Sequence record: MN648445
Length of the DNA stretch: 64,000 bases
Reading direction: 5' to 3' (one strand)
Source of the DNA: Escherichia phage FP43
The position numbers were made by a program, and so were the translations under genes. Shown piece by piece: positions 3,332 to 33,379 of the stretch (the first letter of the stretch is position 1; each line of letters begins with the position of its first letter). The notes beneath the pieces were generated by a model. That model was not told where the DNA came from. It was given only the letters and a program-made list of their open reading frames with translations, and searched no databases.

Positions 3332-4774
3332 GTGGTAGAAATTATTTTGTCTCATCTCGTATACGACCAGGCTTATTTTTCTAAGGTCTGGCCTTATATG
3401 GATTCTGAGTATTTTGAGCGTGGACCGGCAAAAAATGTCTTTAAAATTATAAAGAGCCACGTTAACGAATATAATGCAATGCCATCTATCAATGCATTAA
3501 AGGTGGCTTTAGATAACAGTTCTTTAACTGAAGCCGAATATAAAGGAACTTCAGACCTAATTGAAAAATTGGCTGATACTCCTGAAGACCACGAATGGTT
3601 GGTTAAAGAAACTGAGAAATATGTCCAGCAAAAAGCGATGTATAATGCTACATCCAAAATCATTGAGATTCAGTCTAATGCTGAACTACCTCCAGAACAA
3701 CGTAACAAGAAAATGCCTGACGTAGGAGCTATTCCTGATATTATGCGTCAAGCACTTTCAATTTCGTTTGATAGTTATGTTGGTCATGACTGGATGGAAG
3801 ACTATGAAGCACGCTGGCTTTCTTATCTAAATAAAGCACGTAAGGTCCCGTTCAAATTAAACATTCTTAATAAAATCACCAAAGGTGGCGCAGAAACAGG
3901 TACACTGAACGTTTTAATGGCCGGTGTTAACGTTGGTAAATCTTTAGGCCTTTGTTCACTTGCTGCAGATTATCTTCAAACAGGACATAATGTTCTTTAT
4001 ATTTCCATGGAAATGGCTGAAGAAGTTTGTGCTAAGCGTATAGATGCAAACATGCTTGACGTATCACTCGATGATATCGATGATGGTAACGTATCTTATG
4101 CTGAATATAAAGCCAAGATGGAAAAATGGCGTTCAAAATCAACATTAGGACGTTTAGTAGTTAAACAGTATCCTACTGGTGGAGCTAACGCTAATACATT
4201 TCGTGCATTGCTTAATGAGTTAAAACTTAAGAAGAACTTTGTGCCATCTGTAATCATGGTTGATTACTTAGGTATTTGTGGGTCTTGTCGTATCAGAGTT
4301 TACACTGAAAATAGCTACACATTAGTTAAAGCTATCGCAGAAGAACTTCGTGCATTAGCAGTAGAATCTGAAACAGTTCTATGGACTGCAGCCCAAGTAG
4401 GACGTGCAGCATGGGATGCTTCAGACATGAACATGAGTGATATCGCAGAATCAGCAGGTTTACCAGCAACGGCAGATTTCATGTTGGCTGTAATTGAAAC
4501 CGAAGAACTTGCACAAGCTGAACAACAACTTATCAAACAAATCAAATCACGATATGGTGATAAGAATAAGTGGAATAAATTCCTGATGGGTGTACGTAAA
4601 GGTAACCAGAAATGGATTGAGATTGAGCAAGAAGGCATGAACACACCTAACACAGTAAATGAAAACGCAGGTGCTCAGATGCGTCAGGCAGAGGTGAATC
4701 GTACGGAACGCGTAGGTAAAGCCAAAGCAACACGTGCTGACCTAGATAGCTTAGCCAATGAGTTAAAATTTTAA
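3332..4774 (+). CDS. 41: gp41 replicative DNA helicase (DnaB family)
   Basis: GTG start 6 nt after AAGGAG; Walker A GVNVGKS; sequence nearly identical to T4 gp41 as I recall it; 480 aa. Confidence 0.95.
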   Translation: MVEIILSHLVYDQAYFSKVWPYMDSEYFERGPAKNVFKIIKSHVNEYNAMPSINALKVALDNSSLTEAEYKGTSDLIEKLADTPEDHEWLVKETEKYVQQKAMYNATSKIIEIQSNAELPPEQRNKKMPDVGAIPDIMRQALSISFDSYVGHDWMEDYEARWLSYLNKARKVPFKLNILNKITKGGAETGTLNVLMAGVNVGKSLGLCSLAADYLQTGHNVLYISMEMAEEVCAKRIDANMLDVSLDDIDDGNVSYAEYKAKMEKWRSKSTLGRLVVKQYPTGGANANTFRALLNELKLKKNFVPSVIMVDYLGICGSCRIRVYTENSYTLVKAIAEELRALAVESETVLWTAAQVGRAAWDASDMNMSDIAESAGLPATADFMLAVIETEELAQAEQQLIKQIKSRYGDKNKWNKFLMGVRKGNQKWIEIEQEGMNTPNTVNENAGAQMRQAEVNRTERVGKAKATRADLDSLANELKF

Positions 4775-5866: not shown

Positions 5867-6235
5867 ATGAAAAAATTAATCGCTTTAGCAATGGTATTTG
5901 GATTAACCGGATGCGGTGCTCATGGCTTTATCCCTAATAACGTTGGCCAATTGATTTACAATCCGAATGTTAAACAGTATGACCAACCTAAAGTTGAAGT
6001 GGAAGACCCGGTTACTGTAGGTAATCGAATGATTCAAGCTGATGCCCATGCTCAACGTTATCGTGATTCTGATACTATAGCATTGACAAAAGAACAACGC
6101 GTTAAAGAACATTGTCTACAGGCTACTGAAATCGCATTCATTCGCTATGTTGAAACAACGGGTAAAGAGCCTACCCAGAAACAAATCGCGAATAACTACG
6201 TCCGGTGTATTGAACGTTTAAACAAATTTAATTAA
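5867..6235 (+). CDS. putative lipoprotein
   Basis: N-terminal signal with lipobox LTGC (MKKLIALAMVFGLTGCGA). Confidence 0.6.
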   Translation: MKKLIALAMVFGLTGCGAHGFIPNNVGQLIYNPNVKQYDQPKVEVEDPVTVGNRMIQADAHAQRYRDSDTIALTKEQRVKEHCLQATEIAFIRYVETTGKEPTQKQIANNYVRCIERLNKFN

Positions 6236-6296: not shown

Positions 6297-6545
6297 ATGG
6301 AATTATTCGTAGCTAGTTCAGTAGCAGTTTTAATCGCAGGTATTGGTTCAATCATCATTTACATGTTGCCTTGGGTAATCGCACTTATTCGTGGCACAAA
6401 AAGCACAACAGCAATCTTCTTTGTATCTTTACTCTTTAACTGGACGATGGTTGGTTGGATTGGAACTTTAATTTGGTCTATCGTTGCCGAAAAGAAATCT
6501 TCTCAGCAGCCTCAACAAGTAATTATTATTCGCGAAAAAGAATAA
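6297..6545 (+). CDS. small membrane protein
   Basis: 82 aa, two hydrophobic helices. Confidence 0.55.
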   Translation: MELFVASSVAVLIAGIGSIIIYMLPWVIALIRGTKSTTAIFFVSLLFNWTMVGWIGTLIWSIVAEKKSSQQPQQVIIIREKE

Positions 6546-6608: not shown

Positions 6609-6902
6609 ATGAAAAAGTTATCATTGGCAGCAATCTTACTTGCAGTATCATGTGCACCGGCTCCAGTTACAGCAGGTTATGATAAAGACCTCTGTGAGTG
6701 GTCAATGACTGCAAATCAAGAAGATGTTGAACATCAAATCTTCGCTGATATCATGAACATTACTAAACGAGACCGTCCTAATATGGTTAATAAAGTTGTT
6801 GAACAACTTAAGTCTGGCGGTATCATGCAGTACAACTATGTTTTGTATTGTGACCCTAATTTCGATAACAAAGATATCGTAACCGAAATCACAGGTGAAT
6901 AA
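6609..6902 (+). CDS. sp: Spackle periplasmic protein (superinfection exclusion / lysozyme inhibitor)
   Basis: 97 aa with signal peptide; AGYDKDLCEWSMTA ... MQYNYVLYCD matches recalled T4 Sp (61.3). Confidence 0.75.
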   Translation: MKKLSLAAILLAVSCAPAPVTAGYDKDLCEWSMTANQEDVEHQIFADIMNITKRDRPNMVNKVVEQLKSGGIMQYNYVLYCDPNFDNKDIVTEITGE

Positions 6903-6903
6903 T

Positions 6904-7554
6904 ATGATTTATTACATGCACAAAAACGCACCGTTTAAATATGGTAAATTTCCTAATGCACAATGTTATAATATAACGCCGAATGAAAATAATAACGGAT
7001 ATCATATTGGTGTAATTTTTGTAATTGTTAAAGATAACGAAATCGTTGCCTGGGCAGATTTTAAAGGTACAACGTATGACGTTAATCCAGTTCCGTTCAC
7101 ATATTATAATTTAATGGATTTGGCATACGACTATAATTGGTTTACTCATGATACTCTAGCACATGTTGAAGGCGTAGGATTTGACATCTCTTATTCTAGT
7201 TATTCATTATGTCCTATGAGCCGAGCTCACGGTAAAGATGTATCATATCTTTCAATTCGGAAACGTGTAAACTTCAAACGTAGTACAGAGTATGTTGGTG
7301 GACTCTTTGTTAAAGATAATAAAATAACCCGTATTAGTTATCCTTTAAGTGTAGGTCAAAAAGATGTTGATGTTGATTTAGACTTAACTGAAAATAACAT
7401 TAATCATATTGCTTCTGTATATTTTGATATCGATGAAAAAATTGTAGTGTGTGGATATGAATTACCACCTGAAGAAAAGGCTGAAACAATTGAAGTCGAA
7501 TTAGAAATTTCTGTTGATGACCAAATATTTAATGCATTTATGAATCGAGGTTAA
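6904..7554 (+). CDS. hypothetical protein
   Basis: ORF; ATG at 6904 preferred over upstream GTG 6895. Confidence 0.55.
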   Translation: MIYYMHKNAPFKYGKFPNAQCYNITPNENNNGYHIGVIFVIVKDNEIVAWADFKGTTYDVNPVPFTYYNLMDLAYDYNWFTHDTLAHVEGVGFDISYSSYSLCPMSRAHGKDVSYLSIRKRVNFKRSTEYVGGLFVKDNKITRISYPLSVGQKDVDVDLDLTENNINHIASVYFDIDEKIVVCGYELPPEEKAETIEVELEISVDDQIFNAFMNRG

Positions 7555-8279: not shown

Positions 8280-9302
8280 ATGGCTGAATGGATAGATAAT
8301 GAATTTGCTTATCGTGCGTTTTCTCACCTCCCTCGTTTTAGACAAATCAATAATTCAAGCACATTTAAATTAACATTTCGATGCCCAGTTTGTGGCGACT
8401 CTCAGACAGATGCAATGAAAGCCCGCGGATGGTATTACGGCGGTACTCCAGGTAATGTGCATTGCTATAACTGTCAATACCACAATACAATTTCCGGATA
8501 CTTAAAAGAGTATGATGAAGAGCTTTATCGCGAATATCTAATGGAAGTTCGTAAAGAAAAAGCTAGAATGGAACCGAAGATTGAAAAGGTTCCTGAACAT
8601 AAACCAGAACCGGAGAAAAAGACTATAAATTCTTTGCCGTCTTGTTCTCGTCTGGACAAACTGCCTGAAGAGCATCCTATTGTGAAATATGTTAAGTCTC
8701 GGTGTATTCCTAAAGAATCGTGGAATAGATTATGGTTCACATTAGAATGGCCTAAATTGGTCAACAAGATTCAACCTGGTACGTATAAGAAAGAGATTCC
8801 CGAGCCACGTTTAGTGATTCCTATTTTTAATAAAGATGGGAAGGCCGAGTCATTCCAAGGACGTGCACTTCGTAAAGATGCTCCTCAGAAATATATCACT
8901 ATTAAAGCGTTTGAGTCTGCAACAAAAATTTATGGTGTTGAACGTGTTAAGGAAGGAGACGTCTGGGTAATGGAAGGCCCTATTGATAGTTTATTCATAC
9001 CCAATGCAATCGCTATTACAGGCGGCTCGATAGATTTAGATGTGGTACCATTTAAAGAACGTCGGGTATGGGTAATGGATAATGAACCTAGGCATCCGGA
9101 TACTATAGCTCGCATGAAGCGATTAGTTGATGCAGGCGAACGTGTCATGTTCTGGGATCGAGCTCCATGGAGTTCAAAGGATGTGAATGATATGGTAATG
9201 AAAGAAAATGCAACACCACAAGAAATTTTAGAATATATGAAACAGAATATTTCAAGTGGGTTGCATGCTAAAATGAGATTATCTCGTTATTCGAAGATTT
9301 AA
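8280..9302 (+). CDS. 61: gp61 DNA primase
   Basis: 340 aa; N-terminal Cys4 zinc ribbon (CPVCGD ... CYNCQYH), Toprim-like C-terminal half; matches recalled T4 gp61. Confidence 0.92.
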   Translation: MAEWIDNEFAYRAFSHLPRFRQINNSSTFKLTFRCPVCGDSQTDAMKARGWYYGGTPGNVHCYNCQYHNTISGYLKEYDEELYREYLMEVRKEKARMEPKIEKVPEHKPEPEKKTINSLPSCSRLDKLPEEHPIVKYVKSRCIPKESWNRLWFTLEWPKLVNKIQPGTYKKEIPEPRLVIPIFNKDGKAESFQGRALRKDAPQKYITIKAFESATKIYGVERVKEGDVWVMEGPIDSLFIPNAIAITGGSIDLDVVPFKERRVWVMDNEPRHPDTIARMKRLVDAGERVMFWDRAPWSSKDVNDMVMKENATPQEILEYMKQNISSGLHAKMRLSRYSKI

Positions 9303-9496
9303 ACAAGCCCTATAATAGCAAAGGCCAAATCAACTACAGTATCCAATGGAACAGAAGGAACTATAATACCATGGGCAACTAACAATGGTGCAATCCCGAA
9401 GTTCCATGAAATAATGCCACCTACAACTATTGCAGCGATAGCAGTTTTCTTTTTATTGCCTTTAATAGCGTTGATTAACGATGGAAGTTTAAACAT
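9299..9496 (-). CDS. small membrane protein on opposite strand
   Basis: 65 aa, two TM-like segments; AAGGAG 7 nt upstream of ATG on minus strand; convergent with gene 61. Confidence 0.5.
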   Translation of the reverse strand: MFKLPSLINAIKGNKKKTAIAAIVVGGIISWNFGIAPLLVAHGIIVPSVPLDTVVDLAFAIIGLV

Positions 9497-9584
9497 AATA
9501 TCTCCTTAGTTACCTATTATTTATTACGCTTTATAAAATTAATGTTAGAATTAACTCTCTTATACTGAATTGAAAGGAAAAATA

Positions 9585-10106
9585 ATGGCACACTTTAACG
9601 AATGTTCACAACTTATTTCTGGTGTTGATAAAGCAGAAGAAGCTTATTTTAATGCTCTGATTCACGAAGATAAAGACCCACTGCAGGTAATGCTTGATAT
9701 GCAGAAATCTTTACAGGTTCGTCTGGCAAATGACAAGCCTGAACATAACAAACATCCTGATGAATTGGCTACTGCTGGTGATGTTGTTGATTGGCTGCGT
9801 AATCAGAAAGATTATATTGATGATGAATTCCGTGAACTGCTGACTTCACTTGGTGGTATGAGCAATGGTGAAAAAGCCGCTAGCAGTGTATGGAAGCCAT
9901 GGAAAGCACAACATGCTGAATATCGAAATCGTCGTATCGATGAACTGTCTCCTGAAGACCAGCTTGAAATTAAATTTGAAATGATTGATATTCTGCATTT
10001 CGTTCTGAACATGTTCCAAGGTCTTGGTCTTTCTGCTGAAGAAATCTTTAAACTTTACTACTTGAAAAACCAACACAACTTTGAACGTCAGGATAATGGT
10101 TACTAA
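9585..10106 (+). CDS. 56: gp56 dCTPase/dUTPase (MazG-like NTP pyrophosphatase)
   Basis: MAHFNEC N-terminus, EE-x-x-E MazG-like acidic motifs; ATG 9585 preferred over in-frame 9570. Confidence 0.8.
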   Translation: MAHFNECSQLISGVDKAEEAYFNALIHEDKDPLQVMLDMQKSLQVRLANDKPEHNKHPDELATAGDVVDWLRNQKDYIDDEFRELLTSLGGMSNGEKAASSVWKPWKAQHAEYRNRRIDELSPEDQLEIKFEMIDILHFVLNMFQGLGLSAEEIFKLYYLKNQHNFERQDNGY

Positions 10107-32909: not shown

Positions 32910-33060
32910 TCTTCAGAACGTAGTAGAGGCCGAACGTGAGCGTGAGGCTTTAGTCTATAATGAACTATTAGCTCCGTTCTTAGCCTTACACTCGTACGAA
33001 CAAGAAGACTACATTGATTATGTTAAAAGCGTAGAAAAAGCCGTTTACAATCAACACTGA
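32900..33060 (+). CDS. small hypothetical protein
   Basis: 53-aa ORF; ATG 32900 preferred over upstream 32845. Confidence 0.35.
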
Positions 33061-33106
33061 TAATGGTACTATATCCATATCAACCAAGTGGAATGAATAA
33101 AACGTT

Positions 33107-33379
33107 ATGAATAAAGACATTGAAATCGTACGTGAAATTATTACTATTGCTTCTATTTTGATTAAATTCTCTAGGGAAGATATTGTTGAAGACCGAGCAA
33201 GTTTCATCGGATTCTTGAATGAGATTGGAATTAAAAAAGATGGTCGGCAGCTAAATCAGAATTCGTTCAGAAAACTAATTACAAATTTAACTGCCGAAGA
33301 AAAGAAAACACTGATTAGTGAATTCAATGAAGGTTTTGAAAATATTTATCGTCATTTAGCGATGTATTCTAACAACTAA
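33107..33379 (+). CDS. asiA: AsiA anti-sigma70 factor
   Basis: 90 aa; VREIITIASILIKFSREDIVE ... LNEIGI matches recalled T4 AsiA. Confidence 0.9.
   Translation: MNKDIEIVREIITIASILIKFSREDIVEDRASFIGFLNEIGIKKDGRQLNQNSFRKLITNLTAEEKKTLISEFNEGFENIYRHLAMYSNN

Follow-up and report, generated by a model that had tools for sequence, protein, structure and literature searches.

A conserved small gene convergent with gene 61 in T-even phages, predicted to encode a late inner-membrane protein

A lone minus-strand reading frame between genes 61 and 56

The window analysed here is a 64,000-nucleotide (nt) stretch of Escherichia phage FP43 (record MN648445), and our subject is a 65-codon open reading frame (ORF) on its minus strand, lying between the genes for DNA primase (gene 61) and dCTPase (gene 56). 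The phage region is T4-like, of the Mosigvirus type: segment 8280-10400 is 98% identical to phages ATK47, ATK48 and MM02, and the primase encoded here is 100% identical to that of phage CAU_ECP01. The features of the locus are listed below. The two flanking genes were identified by Pfam and annotated relatives, the small ORF from an ORF list and the sequence, its ribosome-binding site (RBS) by reading the sequence, and the two promoter-like sites by motif scans (late site) and by a pattern scan across lineages (middle site).

8280..9302, plus strand: gene 61, DNA primase, convergent with the small ORF
9299..9302: 4-nt overlap (TTAA) of the convergent stop codons of the small ORF (minus) and gene 61 (plus)
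9299..9496, minus strand: coding sequence of the small, predicted membrane protein, 65 amino acids (aa), with ATG start and TAA stop at 9299-9301
9502..9507, minus strand: Shine-Dalgarno sequence AAGGAG, 5 nt before the ATG of the small ORF
9518..9525, minus strand: T4 late-promoter-like box AATAAATA, a 7/8 match to the consensus TATAAATA, with A at -13; its last base is 21 nt before the ATG
9527..9551, plus strand: middle-promoter-like site for gene 56 (MotA-box-like CGCTTTA, 12 nt, TAGAAT), a motif match alone
9585..10106, plus strand: gene 56, dCTPase, ATG at 9585, divergent from the small ORF

The translated product of the ORF is MFKLPSLINAIKGNKKKTAIAAIVVGGIISWNFGIAPLLVAHGIIVPSVPLDTVVDLAFAIIGLV. 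A sequence-only reading of this DNA had pointed to a lone minus-strand ORF convergent with gene 61 and preceded by a strong AAGGAG site; both observations were recovered by inspection of the sequence and an ORF scan, the RBS being the complement of 9502-9507. The divergent small ORF and gene 56 are separated by a shared control region of 88 nt (9497-9584). Positions 1-33300 of the window form a continuous plus-strand block of 57 ORFs, inside which the small ORF is the sole minus-strand ORF of at least 35 aa that has an RBS and lies in a plus-strand gap. The length of the ORF is by itself weak evidence for a gene; ORFs of such length were found in 3-6% of random or shuffled 282-nt gaps. A second hydrophobic minus-strand ORF, of 73 aa, was seen at 32986-33207, in the gap that separates the plus-strand block from the late tail-fibre/holin cluster. 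No RBS is recognisable in front of it, and it is probably spurious.

The small ORF is conserved in seven genera and under purifying selection

The small-ORF protein matched the PHROG 2024 profile over its full length (phrog_2024, E=1.9e-27, residues 1-65 of 65), and profile searches with the small-ORF family bring back that family alone. With tblastn, matches were obtained in 692 phage records, 685 of them with at least 80% query coverage, and many Mosigvirus records carry a version 95-100% identical. The ortholog in T4 is 66 aa long and 54% identical, lies between dam and gene 61 (NC_000866, 17,739-17,939) and overlaps gene 61 by the same 4 nt; in the T4 segment used for comparison (L003) it occupies 3739-3939. 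It bears no annotation in either T4 reference record (NC_000866, AF158101). In T4T and T6 the ortholog is named dam.1, and the family is also known as VOG1982 and, in phage Bas37, as bas37_0144. Elsewhere it is annotated as hypothetical protein and, now and then, automatically as holin family protein or putative head morphogenesis protein. The family as such is thus not new: it is already catalogued, and annotated as hypothetical in hundreds of genomes.

Synteny convergent with gene 61 was found in seven Tevenvirinae genera (Tequatro-, Mosig-, Gapriver-, Dhaka-, Karam-, Gelderland- and Jiaodavirus), and the convergent ORF is also present in three metagenomic T4-like contigs (L031-L033). The arrangement downstream of the primase gene was seen in T4, T6, T2, SP18, EAWsc9, JS10, CkP1, Melville, pzk-kv6-1 and Bas37, the ortholog being present but unannotated in the Dhakavirus JS10. 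The 4-nt stop overlap is kept in T4, T6, T2, JS10, CkP1, Melville, Bas37 and the metagenomic T4-like contigs, and is missing in Jiaodavirus and in Gaprivervirus, where a spacer of about 110 nt is found. No small ORF was found at the gene 61 position in Winkler-, Slopek-, Krisch-, Pseudoteven-, Hadassah-, Braga- and Biquartavirus.

The sequence-only reading had made its case depend on conservation of the ORF in close relatives, and conservation reaches well past these. Across the seven genera identity ranges from 20 to 55% with invariant residues kept, and W31, N32, P37 and G43 do not vary among 31 diverse family members. Synonymous sites are saturated across genera (pS about 0.75), while the protein is still 46-54% identical. 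Ratios of non-synonymous to synonymous substitution (dN/dS) were 0.13 for CkP1 versus Melville, 0.30 for T4 versus SP18 and 0.25 for JS10 versus L031; those of closely related pairs were uninformative, having too few changes. Taken together with the promoter signal described below, conservation and dN/dS identify the small ORF as a gene where its length does not suffice. We conclude that it is almost certainly a genuine protein-coding gene of the T-even lineage, ortholog of T4T/T6 dam.1 and member of the PHROG 2024 family.

Like dam.1 of T4T and T6, the FP43 ORF sits next to gene 61, encodes a protein in the 65-66 aa range with a WN...P...G pattern, and is preceded by an RBS and a late box. 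The loci differ in the divergent neighbour, which is gene 56 here, and dam or another inserted gene in T4 and T2. Comparison of window positions 9303-9584 with T4 (L003) and T2 (L002) showed no dam between 61 and 56 in this phage, so that gene 56 becomes the divergent neighbour. T4 has dam in the 61-56 interval, plus segF between 56 and soc, and T2 has a FokI-type methylase together with a gene annotated as head outer capsid protein; the small ORF is thus fixed beside gene 61 while its divergent neighbour changes among phages. In T6 (L001, 2492-2692), an ATA stands where the T4-type ATG is, and the start given in the record is 5 codons later (61 aa), farther from the RBS.

A late-promoter-like box precedes the ORF in all lineages examined

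In all 13 lineages examined, a box of the form xATAAATA or ATTAAATA was found 20-30 nt before the ATG, and a strong AGGAG/GGAGG site at -9 to -13; the remaining intergenic sequence is poorly conserved. Late promoters of T4, which depend on gp55, gp33 and gp45, need no -35 element and have the consensus TATAAATA. Geiduschek and Kassavetis (2010, PMC2988020) list 50 T4 sites, 32 of them perfect and 9 with A at -13. Most of the other listed sites carry one deviation; A at -13, as in FP43, is the commonest variant (PMC2988020). The heptamer ATAAATA occurs only 17 times in the whole window. Five of these copies precede a good RBS and a real ORF, and belong to the known late genes 34, 36, t and soc, and to the small ORF. 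The predicted transcript start lies near 9511-9513 on the minus strand. No sigma-70-like site was found upstream of the small ORF on that strand. On these signals, a gp55-type late promoter of its own most likely drives transcription of the ORF, and translation is predicted to be efficient. The earlier expectation of late expression, drawn from strand placement, gains support from the late-promoter box found in every lineage.

A terminator scan of the minus strand detected no terminator-like structure after the small ORF, and a late transcript would for this reason read antisense into gene 61. On the other side of the control region, the middle-promoter-like site of gene 56 stands back-to-back with the late box of the small ORF. 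A perfect version of the former, TGCTT(T/C)A followed by 11 nt and TATAAT, is present in T6, SP18 and EAWsc9. In Gaprivervirus a perfect MotA box, TGCTT(T/C)A, abuts the late box and provides its -13 base (C, where the consensus has T); in the other three lineages with such a MotA box, it is set apart from the late box. Besides the window, the loci compared for this were those of T6, SP18, EAWsc9 and JS10. Literature searches on dam.1 itself, on ribosome profiling of small ORFs in T4 and on strand-specific T4 transcriptomes brought up nothing about the locus.

The protein is predicted to cross the inner membrane once

Averaged over 39 family members, the net charge is +2.6 for the N-terminal flank and -1.2 for the C-terminal flank, on either side of an uncharged core of 30-34 residues. 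In the FP43 protein the C-terminal flank has no Lys or Arg, two Asp and a hydrophobic end. An AlphaFold2 run on a 31-sequence alignment gave a mean pLDDT of 82, with helices at residues 3-11, 15-41 and 51-61, and a Pro-rich loop at 42-50. The Trp-Asn pair lies inside the predicted membrane helix, the invariant Pro being five residues further on. The second hydrophobic segment (residues 51-65) holds two Asp, and in the homologs from Karam-, Gelderland- and Jiaodavirus it is reduced to about 10 residues. Two hydrophobic segments had been noted in the initial reading of the sequence. They are visible on a hydropathy plot, but not tenable as two spans: on the AlphaFold2 model and the charge distribution, the second is too short to cross the membrane, and a topology with two transmembrane segments was rejected. 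Because the basic N-terminal and acidic C-terminal flanks follow the positive-inside rule, we infer a single-pass inner-membrane protein of about 65 residues, N-in/C-out, with a Lys/Arg-rich cytoplasmic N-terminus. Its predicted periplasmic tail would be about 24 residues long, made of a conserved HG..LP..PL(D/E) stretch and then a short amphipathic helix. The membrane location proposed earlier is thereby supported, by charge distribution and structure model.

Comparison with known membrane proteins

No Pfam or NCBIfam match was obtained for the small-ORF protein even at E<=10, nor any match to the PADLOC defence models; one remote homolog gave a chance-level PADLOC match (E=0.006) to part of a 4TM effector model. 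A PDB sequence-profile search returned chance matches to membrane helices only, and these were discarded. Foldseek against viral predicted structures retrieved family members alone, the Holin label on the best match being an automatic name. Comparison by hhalign with the holin T of this phage (33380-34039) gave a probability of 0.2%, and with the Imm-family protein of the window (6297-6545) a probability of 0.6%, that is, no relation in either case. Rfam gave no family on the locus, and a single sub-threshold chance match. The charged, hydrophilic cytoplasmic C-terminal tail of holins is absent: the protein is predicted to have one span, with its tail in the periplasm. Neither in the window nor in the T4-like genomes examined does the small ORF adjoin a lysis gene.

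Several known proteins nevertheless offer points of comparison. T4 RI (an antiholin), RIII, rI.-1 and rI.1 are likewise small, non-essential T-even proteins, found at or near the inner membrane late in infection, and rI.-1 is another small predicted membrane ORF on the strand opposite to its neighbours (cited in PMC6832632). They share no sequence similarity with the small-ORF protein, whose periplasmic part is predicted to be shorter than that of RI (about 24 versus about 70 residues). Small holins (class II, and pinholins such as S21 68) are late-gene products of similar size (about 65-70 aa), with a membrane helix that is likewise rich in Gly, Ala and Ser and has a polar residue inside. The small-ORF protein differs from them in its predicted topology of one span instead of two and no charged cytoplasmic C-terminal tail, in having no Pfam holin match, in the absence of endolysin adjacency in T4-like genomes, and in that holin T is already encoded. 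T4 Imm (PF14373) and HK97 gp15 are also small inner-membrane proteins, non-essential in the laboratory, and the region analysed here carries spackle and an Imm-family gene; however, there is no homology with Imm, the promoter signal is late here and early for Imm, and one span is predicted here against two. Of the interpretation first put forward for this ORF, the late and membrane parts hold. The guess of an immunity, exclusion or lysis factor is neither confirmed nor excluded; the protein shows no homology to Imm, holin T, Pfam holins or PADLOC models.

The Bas37 ortholog is dispensable

The HIDEN-SEQ preprint (10.1101/2025.11.20.689424) reports transposon-insertion data for phage Bas37, a close T4 relative. 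Its gene bas37_0144 (91,945-92,145, plus strand, 66 codons) overlaps the primase gene by 4 nt and, having the same position and length, is the small-ORF ortholog. It was classed as non-essential, with insertions at 20 of 24 TA sites and a mean of 120 reads, which is within the range of other dispensable genes (10.1101/2025.11.20.689424). In three of the host comparisons made there, log2 fold changes for this gene were +0.33, +0.20 and -0.28 (p=0.46-0.66), none significant. The T4 gene table of the same work has no entry between dam and 61, and its Bas37 table includes the ortholog (10.1101/2025.11.20.689424). Dispensability fits an accessory role.

Distant homologs lie in siphophage and prophage contigs

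An exhaustive profile search over 1.84 billion representatives brought back only 20 proteins. Eight of them, outside the T4-like group, have the core motif (W/Y)N-x-I-V-V-P...G-x-x-L-P-P-x-x-L-(E/D) in common, and hhalign of these distant homologs against the family gave a probability of 98.8% (E=5e-17). By sequence they are true family members. Their contigs are siphophage or prophage, not T4-like, and encode a gpJ-like tail-tip protein of about 1,230 aa. A search of viral contigs with narrow alignments yielded five loci; two scans of genome contigs for the prophage-type homologs gave no match.

A basic protein of about 180-196 aa (hereafter p180), with a weak match to the phrog_1924 minor tail protein family (E=6.8e-8), always accompanies the distant homolog. 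A protein of about 105-109 aa (p109), recognised by blastp in most loci, is usually alongside too. Pfam and PDB searches of both partners were uninformative. The homolog often abuts or overlaps the tail-tip, p180 or p109 gene, and in four of five lineages the genes for a T4-type lysozyme (PF00959) and for a coiled-coil protein of about 91-95 aa with one transmembrane domain are found no more than about 2 kb away. In contigs L024-L026 the order is homolog, p180, p109, lysozyme, tightly packed, the stop of the homolog overlapping the start of p180 (in L024, 6001-6249 and 6249-6791). In one contig (L029) the homolog, p180 and p109 have tail genes on either side (phrog_344, phrog_337). In three others (L020, L034 and L028) the phage genes end with the homolog, and host genes or defence-like cargo come next. 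It is directly followed by a 352-aa RelA_SpoT-domain protein in L028 (325-1383), by a DUF3800 protein in L020 (6269-7378), and by host genes in L034; the downstream genes of L028 and L020 look like accessory or defence-type cargo at a prophage end. This context places the family at the tail-distal and lysis end of siphophage genomes, where lysis, exclusion and tail roles are not told apart.

The gene for the 91-95-aa protein (L020, 4712-4999; L024, 7643-7918, minus strand) neighbours the lysozyme gene and converges on it. The protein has one N-terminal membrane span, basic residues, a coiled coil, a predicted N-out/C-in topology and no family match, and is a plausible holin candidate in the siphophage contigs. 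A tblastn search of the phage collection with p180 gave a single record, PQ671644.1 (L030, 14,620-33,129), the 141-kb Escherichia phage DCP80, classed as Gaprivervirus. A siphophage-type cassette (a tail-tip protein of about 1,250 aa, EndoVII, p180, p109 and an endolysin) there stands beside T4-like genes such as motA, and the record looks like a chimeric assembly or an unusual recombinant. Since this sole record looks chimeric, we consider p180 not detectable in T4-like genomes.

Other genes of the early block

Upstream of gene 61, the window encodes an 82-aa protein with two spans (6297-6545, plus strand) that matches Pfam Imm_superinfect (PF14373, E=1.8e-15); the next gene downstream is spackle (6609-6902, PF25676). 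The 41-61 interval thus holds two exclusion-type genes side by side, whereas imm of T4 is located in another part of the genome. At 5867-6235 (plus strand), shortly before the Imm-like gene, a predicted lipoprotein of 122 aa (MKKLIALAMVFGLTGC...) with a DUF5481 match is encoded. A homolog of gene 61.2, at 6895-7554 (plus strand), matches Pfam AdfA (Anti-DarT factor A, E=1e-119), so that an anti-defence gene is found within the same early block as the small ORF.

Possible roles of the protein

A buried Asn and a Pro in the membrane helix may favour helix-helix association, and the small-ORF protein could then, late in infection, associate in the inner membrane with itself or with a membrane helix of some partner. 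On this view it is not the holin but a dispensable accessory, which would adjust the timing of lysis, or lysis inhibition, around holin T. We rank this role first, tentatively, because most characterised small late phage membrane proteins act in lysis control, and because the distant homologs are usually near an endolysin. The putative late promoter, predicted membrane location and strong translation signal were also counted as pointing to lysis.

A number of observations weigh against a part in lysis. Neither at the sequence nor at the profile level does the protein resemble any holin or antiholin family, or the holin T encoded by the phage itself, and the C-terminus is hydrophobic and acidic, unlike the charged cytoplasmic tail of holins. 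We know of no r locus between dam and 61, and of no r-type phenotype mapped there. The near-saturating T4 rapid-lysis screens of Burch et al. in 2011 reportedly yielded only rI, rII, rIII, rIV (sp) and rV (t). The identity of rIV with sp is confirmed by a review (PMC6832632). In the Bas37 library, insertions in rI were depleted (mean 16 reads) and those in bas37_0144 were not (mean 120; 10.1101/2025.11.20.689424). As to the distant homologs, every siphophage lineage pairs them with the p180 protein and its weak minor tail protein match, and in one lineage (L023, L029 and L039) the trio of homolog, p180 and p109 is found among tail genes, with no lysozyme in view.

The small-ORF protein might instead serve superinfection exclusion or immunity, acting in the inner membrane to keep secondary phages from injecting DNA or damaging the membrane; being late-acting, it would prolong the protection given by Imm and Spackle during lysis inhibition, and would protect the lysogen in the prophage relatives. 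We hold this to be unlikely, although a small, predicted inner-membrane protein with a conserved periplasmic tail is what it calls for, the spackle and Imm_superinfect-family genes are about 2.4-3 kb away in the window, and the ortholog is dispensable in single-phage laboratory growth. The prophage-like contigs L020, L028 and L034, with the homolog just after the tail genes, add to its appeal, this position being typical of exclusion genes (cor, llp, HK97 gp15). On the other hand, the only conserved promoter signal is late, whereas T4 exclusion is set up within minutes by early genes, and comparisons with Imm (PF14373) and with the PADLOC models revealed no resemblance. The overlap of the homolog's stop with the start of the next structural-module gene, seen in several siphophage contigs, also suggests expression from a late operon and not from an independently expressed lysogen gene. 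A role in morphogenesis or in the virion, be it as membrane anchor or chaperone for tail, baseplate or head assembly, or as a hydrophobic virion part for DNA ejection, agrees with the late expression signal, with the constant company of a gpJ-like tail-tip gene, p180 and p109 in the siphophage lineages, and with the tail genes flanking the trio in L029. It appears less likely again: p180 is not detectable in T4-like genomes by tblastn of the phage collection, the gene is dispensable in Bas37, and in T4-like phages it lies far from any structural module. To our knowledge no such protein has been reported in the T4 virion, but the reference annotation used in proteomic searches lacks the ORF.

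Two further readings would do away with a function of the protein itself. Late antisense transcription into gene 61 could shut down the primase and gene 56 region, the peptide being incidental; the lack of a terminator-like structure and the overlapping stop codons of the ORF and gene 61 would agree with it, and T4 transcribes both strands at some sites at different times (PMC2988020). Yet selection is purifying at the amino acid level, with residues invariant across genera in which synonymous sites are saturated, the family persists in siphophage contigs without gene 61, the strong RBS is kept in 13/13 lineages, the Gaprivervirus spacer replaces the overlap, and no Rfam family matches. An RNA-only role was thus rejected on conservation grounds, and we consider it very improbable. 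A chance ORF in an AT-rich intergenic gap, for which the frequency of equally long ORFs in random or shuffled gaps of this size and the missing annotation in T4 could be invoked, is effectively refuted by the conservation data: the coverage in 685/692 records, the spread over seven genera at 20-55% identity with invariant residues and dN/dS below 1, the conserved RBS and promoter, and the ties by profile search and hhalign to homologs in unrelated phages leave it next to no weight. What probability remains goes to some other membrane function.

Significance

T4 is among the best-studied viruses, and yet its reference records NC_000866 and AF158101 leave out a conserved small gene. Expression, proteomic and gene-fitness studies based on the T4 annotation are blind to it, since the reference omits the ORF. 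We think it worth recording this annotation gap, together with four further points: a variant late promoter that is conserved, a correction of the predicted topology, an ortholog already published as non-essential, and a connection with a siphophage module. The gene is also an easy experimental target, being small and dispensable, with an apparently clear late promoter, invariant W31/N32/P37/G43 and relatives in a different phage class.

It is possible, although we regard it as rather doubtful, that the protein has been overlooked as a late actor of the inner membrane in the final stage of T-even infection, where it would affect when lysis occurs, lysis inhibition or the late defence against secondary phages. 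The family would then be an ancient one of small proteins, shared with the tail-distal and lysis modules of unrelated siphophages and prophages, and missed by decades of T4 genetics and by recent omics because the reference T4 records lack the annotation. Should the protein have no role in lysis or exclusion, it would be one more conserved phage membrane protein without an assigned role; if it does tune either, it would be an added component of a textbook system.

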